Positions 16,210 through 64,000 of a stretch of 64,000 bases of DNA are shown here, in pieces. The stretch is from Callorhinchus milii. Its lineage: Eukaryota. A model generated the notes under the pieces. The model worked only from the letters and a program-made list of their open reading frames with translations. It was not told the origin of the DNA and made no database searches. The stretch lies in the NCBI RefSeq assembly GCF_018977255.1, contig NW_024704742.1, forward strand, positions 115,632,001 to 115,696,000. Reading direction: 5' to 3'. A program made the position numbers and the translations under genes. Position 1 is the stretch's first letter. Every line of letters starts with the position of its first letter.

Positions 16210-17695
16210 AACATAAGAACATCAGAAATGCTAAACGAAAAAAGACCAAGATCCATCTAGTTCGCCTTTCACCTACCTGGCAGTCACATTGCATGTATGT
16301 CCCGAACTACCTATGTACAATATCCCATAATGTTATTTCCTAATTTGTGTTTGAAAGAATCAACGCTTCCTGCTTCAACCGTCTCACTAGGGAGCCTGTT
16401 CCACAGGTTCACTATTCGCTCACTGAAATAGCGTTTGCGTAGATTTGTTGTGAATTTCCCCCCCTTCAATCAGAGGCCGTGTCCTCTGGCTTTACTATTC
16501 TGGACAAGTTGAAACAGCCCGTCATGATCTATATTGTTTAGAATGTTAAAGACAGCATTCACGTCACCTCTCAATCTTCTCTTTTCCAGCGTGAACATGC
16601 CCAATTTACTTAGTCGCTCCTCATAGTCCAGTCCCTCCATTCACTCAATCATCTTGGTGGCCCTCCTCTGTATCTTCTTGATTTCTCCAATATTCTAATG
16701 ACCAGAACTGTACACAGTACTCTAAGTATTGTCTCACCAATAATTTATACAGTGGCAGGATTACCTCACTATTTTGGCCCACTATTGATCTTTTCAAACA
16801 TCCCAACATCTGGTTTGCTTTACTTACTGCCGCAGAGCATTGTTGGGAGAGCTTCAATTTATTGTCAATCAGGACCCCCAGGTCCTTTTCATTTTTCATA
16901 CATGTTATTTTCCTTCTGTTCAAATGATAGTCCCTTCCAGGATTTTTTGTCTCCATATGAAATACTTTACATTTCTCCAAATTGAATTTCATCTGCCACC
17001 GATCTGCCCAATTCCCAAGTATGTTCAAATCTTCCTGTAACCTATCTAGTTCAGCTTTGCAATCCACCACCTTCATTAGCTTGGTGTCATCTGCAAACTT
17101 AGCCACTGTGCTTGCAACTCCTATTTCTAGATCATTTATAAAAATATTAAACAAAAGAGTTCCCAAAACAGATCCTTGTGGAACTCCAATTGTAACATTT
17201 TCTCAGTCTGGTGATATTCCCTGTATTACCACTCTCTGGGTTCTTCCAGTCAACGAGTTGCGCATCCATTGAATGTACCTCCACTGATTCCCGCTTTCTT
17301 TACTTTCAATACCAGCCTCTCAAGAGGAACTGTATCAAAGGCCTTACAGAAATCCAGATGTAAAACATCGACAGCCTCAACCTTATCAAGCTCACTTTCA
17401 CACCATCAAAGAAAACCAGTAAATTAGATTGGCAAGACCTCCCCTTCATGAACCCATATTGGCTATCATTTATGATTTTATTTCTGTCCAAATGCTCCAT
17501 GATTTTATCCTTAATAAGAGTCTCCGTAATTTTACCCACAATGGATGTCAAGCTTACTGATCTGTAATTTCCTGGGTAACTTTTGTTACCTTTTTTAAAA
17601 ATAGGAGTAACACAAATGTTATTTTGTCCTTTGTCCAGTTTCCCCGGCATCTCTCCAGTATTCAATGATTTTTTGAAAGATTTGTGCCAGAGTTT
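16210..17695 (-). mobile_element. CR1 LINE, 5'-truncated, frameshifted ORF2 (reverse transcriptase)
   Basis: PGNYRSVSLTSIVGK, QYGFMKGRSCQSNL, LFNIFINDL, KFADDTKL, WQMKFNLEKCKV, LEYCVQFWS; CR1 terminal repeat (AACATAAGAACAT on +). Confidence 0.96.
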
Positions 17696-21719: not shown

Positions 21720-23685
21720 AGATGACGGGTGGGTTGGTAGGAGGTTAGGAGGTTAGGGTGGGGCAAGACCATCGAGGTCCTTTGTAGGTGAGGACCAGGA
21801 TCTTGAACTGGATCTCTGAAGGATAGGGAACCAATGGAGTCAGGTGAGAATGGGGGAGATGGGGTCACAGAGTTTGGTGTGGGAGAGAACACGGGCTGTA
21901 GAGTTCTGGATTATCTGCAGCCTGTAGAGGGAGGAGTTGGGAAGGCCGACAAGCAGGGCATTTGCATAGTCGAGCCTGGAGGTGACGAAGGCATGAATGA
22001 GTTTCAGCGGCCTGAGGGGTGAGGTAGTGGCAGAGTCGGGCGATATTACGGAGGTGAGGGAAGGCAGAGTGGGTCATGGCTTGGATGTGGGAAGAAAAGA
22101 CAGTTGAGGATCGAACAAGACACCTAGGTTCCTGACTGGCTTGGTGAGTTGAAGTGTGCGACCATGGAGTCCTGTAGCTCAGTGGTTAGAGCACTCGCTT
22201 TGCAAGCGAGAGACCTGGGTTCAATTCCAGGCAGGGCGAAACCTTGGGCAAGTTTCCTTACTCCACACGCCTAATAATAATCCCTCCCCCCCAAAAAAAA
22301 CAATAATAAATTGGTCATTTTCAATCCATGACTGTTTGTGGGACATTGCTGTGCGCAATTGGCTGCCGCGTTCGCCCACAAATATACAGTCAATTCACTT
22401 TACAGTGTGTTCTGTGAAGCGCTTTGGGACATCCTCCCAACGTGAAAAGCGCTATATCAAATGCAAGGATTATTATTATTATTATTATTATGAAGGTTGA
22501 TGCTGCCAGAGCCTGAGGTGCAGAGGTGCTGGCGCGAGCCAATCGGGAGGGCCTCAATCTAGTTCACATTCAACTGTAGGAAGTTTGCCCTCATCCATGA
22601 CTTGATGTCTGACAGGCAGTCTGTCCTGGAGTTGAGGGTGGAGGCAGAGAGATAGAGTTGGGTGTCATCCGGATACATGTGGAAGTTTACCCCATGTCTG
22701 TGGATGATGTCACCAGGGGGGAGCATGTAGATATTAAAGAGTAGAGGGCCAAGGACAGAGCCCTGAGGGTCGCCAGACGTGACAGTGCCGGGACTGGAGG
22801 AGAACCCGTTAGAAGCAAAAAAGTGGAGATGGTGAGAGAGATAGGAATCGAACCAGGCAAGGGCAGGTCCGCGAAGATTAAGTAAGGAGGAGAGGCGGTG
22901 TATGAGGATGGAGTGGTCGACAGTGTTGAAGGCGGCAGAGAGGTCGAGGAGGACAAGGAGACAGAGGGAGCCCTGATCACAGATGTTCAGAATGTCATTA
23001 GTGACTATGACCAGGGTTGTTTCCGTGCTGTGGGCAGTGCGGAAGCCGTATTGGAGGGGTTCAAAGAGGGAATGGCGAGAGAGAAAGGAGTGGAGCTGGG
23101 ACGCGGAGAGGAATGGGAGGTTAGAGATGGGGCGGTAGCTGGAGAGTAGGGTCCAGGAAAGGTTTTTTTTCAGGATGGGGGTGATGACAGCTGTTTTTAG
23201 GGGGGTTGGAACTGAACCAGTTGACAAGGAGAGCTTGATGATATCGGACAGGAGAGGGGCCAGAAGGTGGAGCTGGGAGAGGAGGAGAGAGGTGGGGATG
23301 GGATCGAGGGAGCAGGTGGTGGGTTTGAGTTTGCGAACAATCACGGAGAGAGATGAGGGAGGGATAGGGTCAAAGGAGTATGGGGGTGATGGGTGGATCA
23401 CGAGGGAGAGGTGATGTGGGGGTAGCTGTGGATGGGGTAGACGTGGCTGAACGTATCCCCTCGATTTTGCTTTCGAGGAAACCTAGCATCTCCTTGCAGT
23501 TGGAGTTTGAGGAGAGGATGGGCGAGGCATGGCAAGGTGGATGAGGAGACGGTTTGTGGTCGAAAAGAGAAGCTGGGGTTGTCCTTTACCTCCAAGATAA
23601 CGTTGGAGTAGAAGGAGGATTTGGCGGAGGCAAGAGCACAGCAGTAGATCTTGGTGTGGTGAAGCCAGATTTGCCAATCTACACA
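21720..23685 (-). mobile_element. L2 LINE ORF2 (RT) fragment, split by a SINE
   Basis: 280-aa ORF with TCSLDPIPT, YRPISNLPFLS, QYGFRTAHSTET, LLDLSAAFNTVDH, PQGSVLGPLLFNIYM, MYPDDTQLY; continues left of the SINE (HLRNIARL). Confidence 0.95.
22164..22491 (+). mobile_element. Young tRNA-Ala SINE inserted in L2
   Basis: Full-length copy; anticodon arm CTCGC-TTTGCAA-GCGAG. Confidence 0.95.
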
Positions 23686-23689
23686 CTTA

Positions 23690-26271
23690 ATATAGATGAA
23701 AATGCTTAATAGTAGCTGAAAATCAAGTCTTACACTTGTACATACATAAAATAAAGTCTATATAATTGACATTCATTAAAATTACGTTAAATAAAAAAAC
23801 TAATTGAGCAGACATTTATTCGATATTTATTAATTTATTCAAATATTGATGAGAATGTGAGAAGGTCACTCAATGGGAAGAATGAAAGCGCTAATGTGCG
23901 TTAACCAGACAATTGAAGTCAGGCATCGTCTCTGTTGTTGCAATGTGGAGTACTCAGTCATCACAGATCTATGTTTTGATTTATTGAATTTCCTCACAGA
24001 AAATGTCTCCTCACATATGTATGTTGATCCAAACAGCACAAGCATCCTCCGGGTATGAGCCTTTATTTTTGGAAAGGTATATTCATTAAGAGAGGCGTAA
24101 AAACTGGGAAGCGGCACTGATTTGAATTGCTCCACAAGCAATGGAACACATTGCAGGTCAACAAGCTTGAGTTGGAGGTCAAATGGGGCTTTGTCAACAT
24201 CAAATGAGAAAGGTGAAGAGATCAAAGACAGATCATTTTCCAATCCAATTGAAAACCTGGAATCGGTGAGAAAATTCGGCATATAAGTCAAGTAGTGGAG
24301 TCCTGTAGCGTGGAGTCCTGTAGCTCAGTGGTTAGAGCACTCGCTTTGCAAGTGAGAGACCTGAGTTCAATTCCAGGCACAGGGCGAAACCTTGGGCAAG
24401 TTTCCTTACTCCACACAGAGCCTAATAATAATCCCTCCAAAACCAAAAACAATAATAAATTGGTCATTTTCAATCTACGACTGTTTGTGGACATTGCTGT
24501 GCGCAATTGGCTGCCGCGTTCACCCACAAATATGCAGTCAATTCACTTTACAGTGTGTTCTGTGAAGCGCTTTGGGACGTCCTCCCGACGTGAAAAGCGC
24601 TATATCAAATGCAAGGATTATTATTCTTATAGTGACAAAATATACTTTTTAAGGCTTTGATCACAAACAGTAATCTGCTGCAAAGTTGTAAAGTGGGTGA
24701 ACAGCCTGTTTCCTATCTGACGTGATAAAATAAATAATTTCATCATAAATGACTTGACACTGCAATGCAAATCATGCACAAAGGCTCCCTTCAGTTGCAG
24801 TTTTGAATTCAGTTCATTCATGTGGCCCACGATATCAACGGCAAATGCGAAATCAGAGAGCCAATTTGCATCATTCAGCTGTGGGAAATCCGAATCTTTT
24901 TGTTTTATGTCCAAAAATCAATCAATCTCTGTCCTCAGTTCCCACACTCATTTCAAGACCTTTCCTAAACTAAGCCATCTTACATTTGTTTGATACAGAA
25001 CATCCGTGTGCTCGGATTCCAATTCCTCAAGCAGAGTTACAAATTGCCTGTGGTTTAATCCTCTTGCTCGAATGTAGTTGACCACTTTCATAACTGTGTC
25101 CACAACATTGCTTAGTTTTAGAACATTCTTATAGAGGACTTCTTGGTGGATAATGCAGTGTAGAAAAAACAATATTCTGTTCTGGATTTGTTTCTTTGAC
25201 GTGATCTTGAATTCTTTTGAGTAACCCAACATTTTTGCCTGTCAGATTTGGGCTTCCATCAGTGGTCACATTCACCAATTTTTTCCACTCCACTTCTAAT
25301 TTTAAGATATACTTATTTACTGCCTCCAAAAAGTCTTCTCCAGTTGTCGTATCTTTCATTGACTGCATTGATGCCAGTTCTTCTGTGATGTTTGGTGATA
25401 CCTCGAATAAAAATTATCAACTGGGCTGTGTCTTTGACATCACAACTCTCATCAAGTGCCAGTGAAAAACATGCAAAATTGTTTACTTTGTTTTGTAACT
25501 GCAGATACAGGTTCTCAGAGATATCCTCGACACATCTCACAATAGTTCGCCTTGATAAGCTAATGTTCTCAAACTGGTCTTTCTTGTCTGGGCATAAAAT
25601 AAAGGCAGAGTCAACCATACATTGCTTTATAAATTCTCCTTCAGAGAATGATTTGCTGTTCTTGGCGATTTTGTGTGCAATCATGTAACTCACTCTTGTA
25701 ATCTCATCCTGGGGGATGCAAATTATTTTGTGAAAATGCTTTGCTCTTTTTGCATTCGAACAACCATCTCATCAGCTTTCTTTTCTTTGGCGGAAACATT
25801 CTTATGTTTTGAGAGCAAGCATGTTTGCTCTCAAAATGGCGATTCAATTTGTAGTATTTGAGCACTGCCACACTTTCTTTGCAAATTAAGCACACAGCTT
25901 TTCCACCCACACTGGTAAAAAAANTATTTAGAAGTCTATTCTTTGTTGAATATTTGGCCTTCAGCGTCCACATTCCGCTTCTTTGATAAACTCATTACGA
26001 ATTGACTTCCTCTTCAGTGAAAAGTATTGCCGCAAGTGTGTTTGAAAATTTGACGATCTGTACATTTCTGACGTCAGCCTTAAGGGAGCATGCGTACAAC
26101 TAAGCAGTGTGATTGGCTGATGTTTCTGGTCTGATTCAAATGTGAAATTTGTGGGACTTTCTGGTACTGAACAAACTATAATTTTTTCTATTGCTAGACA
26201 CAATCACGGGCCAGATAGAATCATTTGGTGAGCCCGAAATAGCCCACAGGCCATATTTCTGTCCATCCCTG
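23690..26271 (-). mobile_element. Decayed autonomous-type hAT DNA transposon (GTF2IRD2/EPM2AIP1/SPIN-like transposase)
   Basis: Frameshifted ORFs: CLICKESV...RHFESKH (BED-type Zn finger), [53 protein letters not shown]. 5' terminus CAGGGATGGAC at 26271 flanked by ATCTAAAC (hAT-like target). The other TIR was not found. Confidence 0.93.
24295..24626 (+). mobile_element. Young tRNA-Ala SINE inserted in the hAT transposase
   Basis: Full copy with a duplicated first 15 bp (GTGGAGTCCTGTAGC x2). Confidence 0.95.
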
Positions 26272-30483: not shown

Positions 30484-31120
30484 GGAGTCCTGTAACTCAA
30501 TGGTTAGAGCATTCGCAAGTGAGAGACCTGATTCTTGACAGGGCAAAACCTTGGGCAAGTTTCCTTACTCCACATGCGTGATAATAATAATCCTTGCATT
30601 TGATATAGCGCTTTTCACGTCGGGAGGACGTCCCAAAGTGCTTCACAGAACACGCTGTAAAGTGAATTGACTGTATATTTGTGGGCGAACGCGGCAGCCA
30701 ATTGCGCACAGCAATGTCCCACAAACAGTCGTAGATTGAATATGACCAATTTATTATTGTTTTGGGTTTTGGAGGGATTATTATTAGGCGTGTGGAGTAA
30801 GGAAACTTGCCCAAGGTTTCGCCCTGTGCCTGGAATTGAACTCAGGTCTCTCACTTGCAAAGTGAGTGCTCTAACCACTGAGCTACAGGACTCCACGATA
30901 ATAATGATAATAATCCCTCAAGAAAAAAAACAATAATAAAATTGGTCACTTCAATCCAGTACTGTTTGTGGGACACAGCTGTGCGCAATTGCCTGCCGCA
31001 TTTAGCCAACAAATATACAGACTAACAACCTGGTTCCTACTTTACAGTATTATTCTCTGAAGTGCTTTGAGATGTCTAGAAAACGTGAAAAGCGCTCTAT
31101 CAAATGCAAGGATTATTATT
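30484..31120. mobile_element. Nested SINEs: young minus-strand copy (30580-30896) inside an older plus-strand copy
   Basis: Host head at 30484-30580; host body and tail resume at 30898. Confidence 0.92.
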
Positions 31121-51934: not shown

Positions 51935-53089
51935 TTTAATCTACATGTTCTTGATATCAGGCTAATGGGCTTTCAACTGCCTGAGTCAGTTTCCTTATCC
52001 TTTAATGTATGAACATCACATTTGCCTGCTTACAGTCCTGCAGTAACATACCAATGCTTATAGAAAAATATATGTTTTATGTAATCTTAAATGATATGGT
52101 TGTGGTGGCATTATGGAAAATAAAATAACATGGAAATTTACATGTATAGGTGCATACATATGTGGAACTCTCAGTCTGGTTTGGCTATTCATGAGGATGG
52201 TGATTGGTTTCCTCCTATGTCAGTCACCCAGCTGACACCACCCCCCCCACCACCACGCCCCATGGAAAATGATTAATGGATGGATAAATAAATAACGCAT
52301 AATTATTCTCTCAGGTGTTAGTTGATGGTGGGTGACAAACCAGAGGTATGATGATACAAACATAATCTGAAGAAAATAAATTTTTAGAAATATTATTGTG
52401 TTTATGCTGAACAGAAAGACTTAAGAACATATACTATCATAAGTCTAAAGAATAGATTTTGTTTTATTAATTTCTAGACAGCCCACAAAAAGAGCGTTTG
52501 GTGTCAAACTGAACACTTGGTAACTATTATGATTGAACACATTCTGATGGAGTGAAAGTATACCCAAATATTTTTTGGGTGTGGGGAAGAGGAGAGAACG
52601 AAACCTTTGAACCTGGTAAATTATTGCTTATGCTATTGGGCAGACAATTGGCATTCATCAATATGCATTTGCACAAGGCAAGACCTATGCAAAGGCACAG
52701 GTAGTTAGGTAGATAATAATAATAATCCTTGCATTTGGTATAGCACCTTTCACATTGGGAGGATGTCTCAAAGCATTTCATAGGATTTGATGTGAAGTGA
52801 TGGACCTTTGTATTTCTAGGTGAATGTAGAAGGCACATTCGCCCACAAATATACAGTCAATTCACTTTACAGTGTGTTCTGTGAAGCGCTTTGGGACGTC
52901 CTCCCGACGTGAAAAGCGCTATATCAAATGCAAGGATTATTATTATTATTTGCAGACAGCAATGAACGACGAGGGTATGGTAGAGAGTAAGGACCGGGTG
53001 GCAACTCATGTATAGTAAAGACACTGGCATGGACTGGTTGGGCCAAATGGCTTCTTTTTGTACTGTACAGCCTAAGCAAATCTGTGCAA

Positions 53090-53822: not shown

Positions 53823-54350
53823 GCGGACACACCCACTGGGCCAGGTTTACAGCAGGAGGGTCAGCAGGGAATGCCTGGGTGGGTGAGTGAGTGGGAATTG
53901 AAAGCTCCTCAGACTGAGGTCCAGCCCATCCTTTGCGTTGCCATGGAGACGGGCCGGGGCAGGATGTGGTCGCCCTGGTTACCGCCTTGGATGCTGACCA
54001 ATCGGGCGGGCCGCTGCGGGCACGTGACGCGCTCTTTGTTGGGCGCCATTTCAGGAGCGGCGAGTCACTGTCACTGATACCGACCACTGTGATGGTTTGG
54101 GTACGTGTGTCCTTCACCTCATACTTACCTTCTTGCTGCAGGTCGTAAGTTGATTTTACTTCAACTACCTCCCTCCCCCTCCCCCCGACCCCTCCCCCCC
54201 CATAATAATAATGACAATAATAATAATAATAAATGTGATGTGGAATAAATAACGATTATGCGGTTTATTTGTTTTTAAATCATTCTTGAAGCGCCGACAC
54301 GGACCGGGCGCCCTTCAGGCCGTAACTGTCATTAGAGAGGCTTCGGTTTT
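53750..54350 (+). promoter_or_regulatory. CpG-island promoter (TATA-less)
   Basis: Dense CpG against a CpG-depleted background. X-boxes GTTGCCATGGAGAC (53937-53950) and GTCGCCCTGGTTAC (53969-53982), CCAAT 53998-54002, GGGCGGG 54004-54010, GCACGTGAC 54020-54028, YY1-like GCGCCATTT 54043-54051. Confidence 0.85.
54035..54100 (+). other. Putative first (5'-UTR) exon of an unidentified gene
   Basis: Lies just downstream of the promoter motifs and overlaps the YY1 site; donor TGG|GTACGT at 54100/54101, alternative GTC|GTAAGT at 54144/54145. TSS approximate. Confidence 0.55.
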
Positions 54351-59769: not shown

Positions 59770-60060
59770 ATTGGTTAGGTGAGCACACTGCCCCATTAAC
59801 ATCTGAGATATGGATTTGAATCTAGATCAATGAAATGGAAGTCTAATCTGTTTGCTTCAATACAGCAACAGCAACAACTTGAATTTATGTAACACCCTTC
59901 ACGCGGGATAGCGTTCCGGAATGCTTTGATTCTATGCGTTTGGGTATTCTCAACCTACCTCATTCTGGGTAAGTGCCCATAGCATAAATCTGCACTGAAT
60001 TTGGATTAATTGAGGCACTGAAAGAACTACAAAGCTAGTGCTGTCTGTAGGAGGAGATTT
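59770..60060 (+). mobile_element. Possible LF-SINE-like relic interrupted by a LINE tail
   Basis: tRNA-like head (GGATTTGAATCTAG) and a block resembling my recollection of the LF-SINE core; highly diverged. Confidence 0.35.
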
Positions 60061-60493
60061 CTTGGTTGTTGGATTTATTCCACCTCCAAATGGATGGCAA
60101 CAGCTGGACAGAATCAAGTAAAAGTAAGGAAAAATCTTAAAACTTAAATTTGATGATGAAAGGTACAATTACTTCTAAACATGAGAGAAATAGAAGTTCT
60201 GGATTGCGATGAGACTTGTGGTGGGAAGAGGGTAACCAGACAAGCAGAAATTAGCAATAATAATAATTAGTAATAATGATGATGATCATTTGATTTAGCA
60301 CTTTTCATGTTGAGATGTCTGAAAGCGCTTCATAGGATTTTACTGTAAAGGTTAATGAGTGTGTATTTGCATATAGCAGTATCCCCCAAACAATCATGAA
60401 ATAAATGACTAATTTTATGTGGGGGATTATTTGCCAAAACACTGAGAGAAATTCTTCCTCTAAAGATTTCTACATTTTGTTCTTTTTTTACAG

Positions 60494-60599
60494 TGTATCA
60501 TGAAGGTTATAATCACTAGTGTATTGCGAGAAATATATGTGAGATGGACATATAATTTTTGTTGAGCCTAAACAGGGAAAAGTGCCAGCTTTGCTTGAG
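60494..60599 (+). other. Putative non-coding (5'-UTR) exon
   Basis: Strong acceptor TTTTGTTCTTTTTTTACAG| and donor GAG|GTTAGT; 106 bp; stops in all three frames. Confidence 0.5.
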
Positions 60600-60689
60600 G
60601 TTAGTATGTGCTTAAACTTAAAAGGAATGGGATAATAGTCTTTAGTGTTTTATTTGGACTATCCGTCAAACCCTACATTTGGATCTCAC

Positions 60690-61160
60690 TTGCTCTGTCT
60701 TTCTATACTTTGCCTGCTTCTGCTACAACCTCTCCCGTTGGGCTACTAAAATTCTTATCCTTTCCTTCATCAAATCCCAGCTCGATTATTCCAATGGCCT
60801 CCTCTCTGGTCTCCCAGCTCCTTCCGATACAATCTGCTGACAATCTAGAACTCTGCAGAACCATGCCTACTTCCTCACCAGGCTCTGCAGGTGCATCTGT
60901 GGTATCCTCCACTGGCTCGCCATCCACCAGCAGATCAAATACAATAAATAGCCTGGGTTTCAAATTCTTCCATGAGCTTACTTTACCCTGTGACCCGCTG
61001 TGACCCTACTGCCCTGACTGCTCCCTCTGCTCAGTAAACACAGGCTTCCCTCGCCTACTCTGCCCACTATTGGACACACTTTCAGCCATTCTTTCCCCAC
61101 TCTCTGGAACTCAATTCCAGTGCCCAGATTCATTGTTATGGTCTTTGAATCCCTTCAAGG
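60690..61160 (+). mobile_element. Old L2 ORF2 C-terminal fragment
   Basis: CTCGATTATTCCAAT (LDYSN), CTCCACTGGCTC (LHWL), CTCTGGAACTC (LWNS); further old L2 pieces at 61900-62500. Confidence 0.7.
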
Positions 61161-62637
61161 TCTCATCCCGCTGATCCCGTTAGAACATAACATAGGTAAC
61201 CCTGCTGAGTGCGATGGGTTACCTATGTTATTTTCTAGTGTTCTACATTCTAGTCTGCATCCTGCTCTCTTACCATTCTCGTTTATTCGCCTACGTCTTT
61301 TCCTTTGTACCTCCTCTGACCGAGCTTTCAGCCACCATATTCAATAAGAATTGTACTTAGTCAAATGTGAGTGAAAGGTTGTAACTCAATCTCTGGTTTC
61401 AGATATTGGCCATAAACTCTGTTAGTCATCTGAACTGCGAGTAATTTTATTATTTGCTTTCAGCCATTCATTTGGGGGGGGGGGTTGGTGGGCGGAGAAG
61501 AGGAATCAATTAATTAGATGAGCCAACAAGTGGCAGATGACCAATATTCTTTATTCTTTACATTACGTTACAAGAAACAACAATGAGTGCAAATTGAAGT
61601 GTGTCCATTAACAGGAATATTGATGATATTTGGCTATGACGTGGTGCCTTACGTCAAACATCACAGAATGCTTCAAACAACAAGTTGCACACACTGTTAT
61701 GCAGGCAAATGTGGCATCTATTGGCGCCAGCAGCACCCCCAATGAAATCAATGAAATACATGATTATTTTTTTGTTTATATTTGCATGAGCCAGAACTAT
61801 TGGCAGGAGAACACCCTATTGCCCTAATAATGTAGCGGCATGGGATCTTTAACATCTGCTGAAAGAAGCATTTGTACCACTGAATGCACCTTTGGCTTAA
61901 AATCTTATCTCTGACCATGTCTTAATTTACTGCCTCCTCTTGCCAAACCTGTCACCATCGCCTTTCCTCCCTTGAAAAAANTCCCCACTGTCTCACAGCT
62001 GCCCTTGAGTCTTACAAACTGTTGGCTCTCTGGCCTTCTGCCTGCTTGAAGCTTCTTCTCTGTCAAGTTTATGCACAACTCCCTCATTGACATTCGCAGC
62101 ACTTTCTCTACCATCACTTCCCGAACTGCAAGTGTTCCTTGGTATAACAGTCAGTTCCATGCCCTAAAGTCCCAGGCCCAAATTGCTGAGTGAACATGGC
62201 TCAAATCTAGCCTCACAATCCATTACCAGATCAGGCTGGACCACACTAAAGTCTATCATTGCCTATATTCACCTCAGCCAAATTGTCATTCTACTCCGCT
62301 CTTTGGAACTCAATCCCAGGGTCTCTGTGACTCTACCTCTTGCCTTTAAAGCCCTCCTTGACATCTTTTTGACTTCACTTTTGATCCTATTTTTCCTCCT
62401 CCTTCACCCTCCTCAGCTTCTCTTCCCCATCCCCACACCCAGTCAACTGTGTGAAGCACTTTGAGACGTCCTCCCGAAGTGAAATGAGCTATATTAATTG
62501 CTATCCAAAGAATAGAACCTTCTAAGAAATTGTGGAGTTGCTTCCATTTTTATTTTGTGAGTGGTATCACTGAAATCTACATTCCATATTGGATCCTTTG
62601 GTTGCAAAATTAGCTTCAAAATGTACAGCTAGTCTCA

Positions 62638-62848
62638 AATAAAAAAGAAATCACTGGGAACACTCAGCAATTCAGGCAACATATTTCGAGGAGGAAAGTG
62701 GGTTAATGTTTCAGGTCGATGACCTTTCGTCAGAACGAAAGGACAAAAGGTCTGACGAAAGGTCATCGACCTGAAACTTTAATCCACTTTCCTCTCTCCA
62801 TAGATACTGCCTGGGCTGCTGAGTGTTCCCAGCTTATTCTGTTTTTAC
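62638..62848. mobile_element. Palindromic Penelope-type element with two inverted minimal hammerhead-like motifs
   Basis: ~97-bp inverted arms around a 16-bp spacer; each arm carries CTGACGA-A-AGGTC-ATC-GACCT-GAAAC. Confidence 0.7.
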
Positions 62849-63317
62849 TCAATAATAATACTCCTTGCATTTGACATAGCGCCTTATCGTATCTTCGAGA
62901 CTTCTCAAAGCATTTCACAGAATATACTGTAAAGTAATTTCTAAAAGATTTCAATCCTTCTCATTGTTTGGTAAACCCATACCCAGCGGTCAGAAACCTA
63001 GGCGTGTCATTGGAAGAATTGGGATGTAGGGTAAGAAGGGGGAAAAAAAATGTGTTCATTGCAGAGGAAAGGAAGGCTTTAGATGAGCATTTAAAGAGGA
63101 ACAATATGCTTTATAATATGAGGAGGAACCCAAAAATAAGGATTAAATCCCTCCAATGGAGGAACTGGCACTAGCACAGGCTTCATCGGCTGATTGGCTT
63201 CTTTTATACTGTCATTTCTATGATTCAAAATAATTTATTTATTGAAGTGTTCAACAATATTTTGAACTGCTAGCATGATTTGCATCTATCACCTGGTTGT
63301 TTTCTTCTTTGCAACAG

Positions 63318-63479
63318 GGTGCATTGTAGCAGATTGGCTGGACATGTACTGTGTTCTACCCTCCCCATAAGAATTGAGAAATAGCTCAGTTTGCCAATTG
63401 TTGCATTTTTTTAAGTGATTAGCAGTTGCTGGACAGTAAACTAAGTTATCGGGAAATGTACCATCCTACTTTGAGGAAG
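63318..63479 (+). other. Possible exon (5'-UTR or first coding, MYHPTLRK)
   Basis: Acceptor TTTTCTTCTTTGCAACAG|, donor AAG|GTAATC; ATG near 63456 is open to the donor. No recognised homology. Confidence 0.3.
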
Positions 63480-63960
63480 GTAATCAGGTTCTCTGGGGCC
63501 AAGTTGATTCCAAAGTAACGAGCCTGATAATGGAATATTGGAATTGAGCCAATCCTCTGTGGCAATCTCAGTTCTGGTCTCTGAGCCACGCAGATCTGCT
63601 GTACAGTCCAAGGCACAGTTGAATTTCTGTCATGTTATTAAATTCGTATTAGTGGAACTTAGAGCAGACCAGTCACTAGGAGCTGTGATTGTTCTCTTTT
63701 GACTTGTTAACCCTGGAAGCCCAAAACCAAATGGTTAGGGTTGTCCTAGCCAGATAAACAGCAGTAAGATTTCAGTGTTCATGGTAGCAAGCAGCAATTT
63801 TAGTAGTAATTTGATGAACGCGCTGGATTCCTCTGGATTTCTAAAGCTGTGGCCCTTGGCCGTAACCTGCACCGAAATGTCCTGGTCTAGGTAAACAAGG
63901 TGTGCCCTGTAGAGACAGAGTACACACTCGTTTACTAGACAAATGAAAAACACACATGTA
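63470..63960 (+). repeat. Unclassified ancient repeat
   Basis: AATTGAGCCAATCCTCTGTGG, GAGCAGACCAGTCACT, CTAGGTAAACAAGGT blocks. Confidence 0.65.
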
Positions 63961-64000
63961 GATCTATCAATAGTTTAGTTTTGAAATGCTTAAGCAATGT

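Follow-up and report, generated by a model that had tools for sequence, protein, structure and literature searches.

A fold-back stub with opposed, probably dead minimal hammerheads in the genome of Callorhinchus milii, most likely left by a Penelope-like element

The inverted repeat at 62638-62849 of the window (the whole 64-kb stretch of repeat-rich animal DNA analysed here) is best explained, with a probability of roughly 0.8, as an old insertion from a Penelope-like element (PLE) of the endonuclease type, inactive, truncated at its 5' end and joined head to head to an inverted partner. As part of the same reading, and held with the same confidence, the stub would comprise roughly 100 nt from the 3' end of the element's pseudo-LTR, including a minimal hammerhead ribozyme (min-HHR). 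The arms are very abundant, and the majority letters of their family complete a min-HHR of the PLE type. The locus is most likely ordinary genomic debris of a known kind; its new detail is the centre, which is two tandem copies of an 8-mer of the arm itself (Table 1).

The first-pass annotation of this DNA had described an inverted repeat of about 210 bp with a perfect inner 27 bp and diverged outer arms, and this geometry is confirmed. The inner arms (62691-62734/62751-62794, 44 nt) are 95% complementary and the outer arms (62641-62690/62796-62845, 50 nt) 74%, with no arm-against-arm mismatch in the inner 27 columns and 16 mismatches in the outer 68. The long hairpin RNA that had been foreseen is borne out by folding, in which 62620-62870 reaches -129.6 kcal/mol (z -15.6), while none of 200 shuffles was equally stable. 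The retention of CpGs, proposed at the same time, holds for two of the three core CpGs of each arm but fails for the CpG at 15.2-16.2, which the left and the right arm have lost through different changes. Within the 64-kb window no other copy of the palindrome was detected by blastn or nhmmer.

Table 1. Features at the palindrome and its right-hand neighbour
Feature	Position	Strand	Description and basis
Left arm	62638..62736	-	5'-truncated 3' end of a repeat family; arm alignment and contig depth
Centre	62735..62750	+	An 8-mer of the arm, present twice in tandem; tiling test, fold, depth
Right arm	62751..62849	+	Second 5'-truncated copy, beginning one base before C3
Minimal type I hammerhead, left copy	62702..62736	-	Structure search and comparison with the consensus of PMC4209133 Fig. 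S3
Minimal hammerhead, right copy	62751..62783	+	Structure search and contig depth
SINE-like 3' tail piece, neighbour outside the element	62851..62935	-	(AAT)n end abuts the right arm

Both strands read CUGACGA-A-AGGUC-AUC-GACCU-GAAAC, followed by A-U-U-AAC on the minus strand and by U-U-U-AAU on the plus strand, and in both arms the CUGANGA and GAAA boxes flank stem II. A relaxed hammerhead descriptor finds the two cores, confirming the proposal of one per strand, with two matches in 64 kb against 0.027 per 64 kb expected from 150 Markov simulations, the two matches being a single motif and its mirror image. The strict descriptor, which requires the 15.2-16.2 pair, has no match in the 64-kb window. 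The hammerhead search suggested at first pass thus succeeds with the relaxed descriptor but not with Rfam, where six weak matches at E up to 10 in 60000-64000 include no hammerhead family, none on the hairpin and none at the gathering score.

In the left copy, stem I is formed by the GUU/AAC pairing noted at first pass (62736-62734 with 62704-62702, 3 bp), C3 lies at 62733, an extra A at 62726 precedes a stem II of 5 bp, and GAAA occupies 62712-62709, with a putative cut site at 62705/62704; position 16.2 is A (62707), which breaks the helix III palindrome. The right copy has C3 at 62752, the extra A at 62759, stem II at 62760-62772, GAAA at 62773-62776 and U at 16.2 (62778), where the family majority is G, while its stem I (GGU/AAU) is broken through the truncation, the arm beginning at 62751, and through the letter at 62783. 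Positions 15.2-16.2 consequently read C-A on the left and C-U on the right, a palindrome in neither arm. The 10.1-11.1 pair is A-U in both arms as opposed to G-C in the PLE consensus (>80%), but A-U occurs in two of the motifs listed in PMC4209133 (D. willistoni and Latimeria 2), so that G10.1-C11.1 is typical rather than obligatory. The extra A before stem II, formerly suspected to be a defect, is rejected as such and is instead a hallmark, as one nucleotide between 9 and 10.1 is conserved among the PLE motifs of PMC4209133, which describes it along with a 15.2-16.2 palindrome and with paired motifs on opposite strands, separated by 100-700 bp.

The inactivity that had been thought likely is supported by the change of 16.2 in both arms, by the opposite strands of the cores and by their burial in the hairpin at a cost of about 37 kcal/mol. 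In folding calculations a hammerhead-compatible structure costs +37.7 and +36.8 kcal/mol for the two cores, for 371-nt transcripts of both strands the probability of stem II is 0 after rounding, and even isolated arms favour pairing with the centre, with stem II probabilities of 0.07 and 0.0003. Cleavage by min-HHRs depends on dimers (PMC6765202, PMC4209133). As 16.2 is A on the left and U on the right, the four-base helix III of a dimer would retain two of its four pairs. Because of the opposite orientation of the cores, any single transcript carries a core together with the complement of that core, for which reason a cis-dimer of the two cores is rejected. The hammerhead copies of this locus are, as modelled, very probably dead and without self-cleavage; if transcribed, the locus would yield a passive double-stranded RNA hairpin. 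Selection on cleavage is unlikely, since 16.2 is lost in both arms.

Selection might alternatively have kept the inner hairpin as a source of small RNAs, miRNA-like or endo-siRNA, directed against the element family. The perfect 27-bp duplex adjoining a 16-nt loop is in keeping with such a source, and transcription of the site could start from a promoter-like stretch near 53.9-54.1 kb, but none of the six weak Rfam matches in 60000-64000 reaches a gathering score or falls on the hairpin, and the mismatch gradient has neutral explanations, which leaves this alternative very improbable.

The family to which the arms belong is seen in Logan contigs from 4 of 24 runs (X1, X2, X5 and X7, the last from a second organism), aligned to 62300-63300. 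Summed contig depth, which is not a copy number, rises in X1 from about 7 in the unique flank to 14,461 at 62701, 22,547 at 62778 and 121,042 at 62806; the arms thus represent a very high-copy family, its copies numbering roughly in the thousands, and the family occurs in the second organism as well. At 62778 the majority letter is G in each run (X1 17,140/22,547; X2 29,934/37,660; X5 18,192/20,254; X7 19,614/33,517) and at 62783 it is C, by which the family majority reads GAAA-C-G-U-U followed by AAC, a complete minimal hammerhead with a palindromic 15.2-16.2. The first-pass annotation had reckoned with a family lacking the core as grounds for abandoning its reading; on the contrary, the majority G completes GAAAC-G-UU in all four runs, and its proposal of a PLE-type minimal hammerhead in inverted arrangement gains support from this majority and from the traits given in PMC4209133. 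The family consensus is seen in part, through the displayed substitution rows with 107 further rows outside them. Near the cut site depth is flat (22,547 at 62778 and 23,304 at 62783).

By the displayed rows each arm carries six private changes from the majority, which suggests that the arms are of equal age, and the symmetric pair 62701/62784 deviates from the majority in both arms, a shared change that fits either a common template or conversion.

An origin as a MITE or other DNA-transposon derivative, in which hammerhead-like words arose by chance, would suit the size of about 210 bp and the long inverted arms. The chance rate of the descriptor and the completion of the core by the family majority speak against it, as do variable centres, one-armed pieces and the lack of a target-site duplication (TSD); neither a fixed two-armed unit with a constant centre nor a superfamily TSD was found, and the explanation is hardly credible.

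Among 32 listed contig pieces, outside which lie 67,884 more, 18 cover the right arm without entering this centre and the left arm, one covers the left arm and terminates at its edge, at 62736, and six bridge the centre, each being 2-12 nt shorter there; two of these six probably represent the same locus, seen in different runs, and partner arms may be among the contig pieces beyond the 32 listed. Strand-switch joints occur at several other positions among the listed pieces, and centres clearly vary between copies. In X1 the depth at 62740-62742 falls to 62-71, against 14,461 and 22,547 in the arms, which marks the 16-nt centre as copy-specific and not family sequence. The shortfall at the centre, the one-armed pieces and the low centre depth fit PLE ends that are truncated on the 5' side and have an inverted partner peculiar to each copy. 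From the alignment of the arms, the tiling of the centre and the listed pieces, an inverted 5'-truncated copy is joined head to head at a junction that differs between copies.

The same data do not sustain the distinct non-autonomous element that had been claimed at first, as the bridging pieces are 2-12 nt shorter and depth is in the tens at the centre but exceeds 14,000 in the arms. A palindromic mini-retroelement spreading as a unit and using both hammerheads would draw on the high copy number, on other fold-back copies that turn near the same place and on the existence of non-autonomous hammerhead elements derived from PLE ends (10.64898/2026.07.22.740005). However, the present centre is almost unique to this copy, and centres elsewhere are of other lengths, the retrozymes described in that work are same-strand tandem repeats, and cores on opposite strands cannot dimerise within one RNA and are sequestered, so that such an element is improbable. 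No same-strand tandem hammerhead units were found: there is one core per strand and no further copy in the window.

Many family contig pieces (Logan) span 62751-62847, and one Logan contig confirms 62776-62879 letter for letter. No Logan contig of the locus itself, among those listed, spans the centre, the sequence of which therefore rests on the assembly. A perfect core produced partly by assembly or polishing, with reads of other copies pulling both arms towards the majority, would be compatible with the lack of a listed contig of this locus across 62708-62775. But arm-private letters beside the core are kept and confirmed by the exact contig, and the centre is copy-specific; an artefact of this kind carries very little weight.

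Within the centre, 62735-62742 equals 62755-62762 exactly and 62743-62752 matches 62755-62764 at nine of ten positions, the single miss being a change of CpG to CpA, while 62723-62730 pairs perfectly with 62735-62742 across a 4-nt loop. Tiling of the centre in two pieces onto the first 40 nt of the arm gives 15 of 16 matches, a value reached in 6 shuffles and in 7 window draws, out of 20,000 each; with the two bases explained by stem I omitted, the 14-nt tiling is equalled in 84 and 68 of 20,000 in the two nulls. The resulting p of 0.0003-0.004 belongs to a statistic picked after the pattern was seen. The reading of G at 62750 as a point mutation was rejected, a junction base being simpler.

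Such a centre would be a templated scar of repeated snap-back synthesis, left either at insertion or in later repair; in end-joining repair, too, synthesis in repeated rounds is described as producing complex templated insertions (PMC2943611). Formation at insertion has about even odds, later repair comes behind it as a serious contender, and some other origin is unlikely. One centre CpG has already decayed, and the scar is thus probably not recent.

Under the preferred reading as a PLE stub, the left arm would be the pseudo-LTR end of the element with its sense on the minus strand, its plus-strand reading being interpreted as first-strand cDNA. In the simplest mechanism, target-primed reverse transcription would have made this cDNA and halted at the 5' edge of the hammerhead (62736), whereupon the cDNA 3' end could have folded back with a 2-nt primer and a 4-nt loop. 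An extension of 6 nt, a slip and a second extension would leave two short abortive tandem 8-mers, and re-priming followed by copying of the cDNA to its end would give the right arm. The arms would have been identical at birth and decayed about equally later. That the centre is a record of how PLEs build their inverted partners, by repeated 2-nt snap-backs with the hammerhead sequence setting the turning point, is a tentative extension of this scheme; the self-priming polymerase would then be the reverse transcriptase or a Pol-theta-like enzyme, acting where the cDNA halts at the hammerhead edge.

Equal decay would not lead one to expect a perfect inner 27 bp, which the first-pass annotation had ascribed to conversion within the hairpin. 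None of the 16 mismatches falls in the 27 of 95 columns anchored at the centre (hypergeometric p 0.0027), whereas a permutation for the longest run, in which 27 clean columns may lie anywhere, gives p 0.046, and clustered mismatches counted as 8-12 events give p 0.02-0.07; these values come from a locus chosen for readable cores among thousands of copies. The gradient between inner and outer columns (p 0.003-0.07) lends the claim modest support, and the displayed rows, with 107 further rows outside them, include no shared change in the core; conversion of the core is possible.

Given a mechanism, this idea would be that the same PLE stub had its centre rewritten later: a palindrome perfect at the outset would have broken or halted replication at its middle, and templated repair, by snap-back end joining or template switch, would have inserted the 8-mers and recopied the inner 27-44 bp of one arm onto the other, a course that concerns the core only and is compatible with a PLE origin. 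The centre-anchored gradient (0/27 against 16/68) suits it, as do four of four inner CpGs intact with both 15.2-16.2 CpGs lost, and a bridging piece that is 12 nt shorter and occurs in both X1 and X2 would fit a loop-free junction; repeated templated synthesis is known (PMC2943611), and template switching can perfect stems (PMC8794818). On the other hand, the clustering of the mismatches and the longest-run test weaken the gradient, the selection of the locus bears on it too, conversion should leave shared core changes such as are lacking among the displayed rows, and the decayed centre CpG makes a recent scar improbable. Late rewriting of the centre is accordingly doubtful, and a later homogenisation of the core is a proposition of about the same standing.

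Further points counting against a PLE stub are the A-U pair at 10.1-11.1 and the lack of a TSD above chance and of an identified tail. No TSD, which is optional in PLEs, stands above chance (best score 6, with 219 of 300 random flank sets scoring at least 6). At the place of a one-sided tail of 30-40 nt, likewise optional, for which the family sequence is displayed up to 62847, the SINE-like tail adjoins the right arm at 62851, and it may have erased the boundary of the element. This SINE-like repeat is abundant in the window, and loose contig ends pile up at 62851 and 62935. For a link to a PLE reading frame, five scans (two of viral contigs, two of metagenome contigs, one of prokaryote genomes) gave no pattern match, and in a protein search, a weak test, the 40-aa frame crossing the right arm had no match at E up to 10. 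The nearest of three RVT_1 matches in the window lies at least 39 kb from the palindrome.

With respect to the surroundings, a Pfam scan of 397 ORFs (stop-to-stop, at least 45 aa, under half repeat content) gave the three RVT_1 matches and three sub-threshold matches, with no host-gene family above cut-off, and a strict exon scan gave six unconvincing candidates. The region 53930-54130 is promoter-like and CpG-richer, has splice-donor-like sites on both strands and contains a palindromic GTTGCCATGGAGAC box as well as CCAAT- and E-box-like words; it is possibly a bidirectional promoter. Unique sequence at 63042-63285, about 80% alike in the second organism, adjoins an AG...GT-bounded stretch at 63318-63479, and the two together (63042-63479) are a candidate conserved element or 5' exon. 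The promoter-like stretch, the AG...GT stretch and the match of about 80% make it plausible that the site is intronic, as stated at first pass, and lies in a 5' intron of a gene on the plus strand. Run X5, guessed to be RNA, has no depth in 62946-63300, which is evidence neither for nor against expression.

Other repeats of the window comprise, left of the palindrome, a short fragment at 62572-62605 with a depth of 36,086 in X1 and without another copy in the window, and a second small fold-back at 61181-61237 (22-nt arms, 95% complementary, 13-nt loop), which is devoid of hammerhead boxes and has short matches only elsewhere in the window. SINE-like tails form inverted pairs at 52713-52949 and 30583-31120. 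Broken minus-strand frames at 23866-25768, interrupted by a SINE-like copy, resemble a hAT-type transposase (no Pfam match). Decayed LINE reverse-transcriptase fragments (RVT_1) lie at 16645-17695 and 22559-23482, and further LINE-like remnants were seen by eye near 60605-61160 and 61900-62480.

Taken singly the locus matters little, as PLE hammerheads and inverted PLE ends are already described and this copy is broken. The steps of PLE insertion after first-strand synthesis are, however, still unvalidated (PMC11167929), and self-priming has been inferred solely from junction palindromes (PMC3846280). Repeated snap-back synthesis predicts a centre of this sort, built from abortive copies of the arm in tandem, and such centres can be counted genome-wide. 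If the reading is true, thousands of stubs in this genome would offer ready-made material on how the second strand arises in PLE transposition, a step still unsolved, and the same stubs would inform on the homogenisation of arms in short palindromes. In the open-access literature, subscription papers and Repbase/Dfam being outside the scope, we found no paper that has fold-back PLE stubs with hammerheads in cartilaginous fish as its subject.

Among known systems, the min-HHRs of metazoan PLE pseudo-LTRs (Cervera and De la Pena, 2014, PMC4209133) share with this locus CUGANGA, the extra nucleotide, stem II, GAAA and a short stem I, a two-base palindromic helix III (here in the family majority) with a U-rich 5' side, and the occurrence as close opposite-strand pairs among mostly dispersed truncated copies. 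They differ in the 10.1-11.1 pair, A-U here, in 16.2, lost here in both copies, and in spacing, the present cores being 18 nt apart against the roughly 100-700 bp reported; the rows of that paper's alignment considered here include no cartilaginous fish. Animal non-LTR retrozymes (10.64898/2026.07.22.740005) are likewise non-coding, hammerhead-bearing and PLE-derived, and are reported there in the single chondrichthyan genome sampled, but they are same-strand tandem repeats capable of cutting twice, in contrast to the inverted pair found here.

In PLE insertions an inverted 5'-truncated copy often adjoins the 5' end (PMC8557442, PMC8969392, PMC3846280), and Arkhipova et al. (2013, PMC3846280) interpreted palindromes at head-to-head junctions as the outcome of self-priming on an antisense template. 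The locus shares head-to-head inverted ends and a self-complementary junction with insertions of endonuclease-bearing PLEs (PMC3846280; Craig et al., 2021, PMC8557442), and unlike these has about 100 nt per arm, no ORF and no detectable TSD or tail, and, compared with the simple palindrome of such junctions (PMC3846280), two abortive tandem extensions. In PAc, the Poseidon element of Anolis (Frangieh et al., 2024, PMC11167929), the hammerhead also lies a short way upstream of the 3' end, the uncleaved RNA is the template, and cleavage depends on protein, while insertion can do without cleavage. While PAc is active, autonomous and cleaved with the assistance of protein and the present copy is a mutated stub, a template of uncleaved RNA fits the missing depth step at the cut site here.
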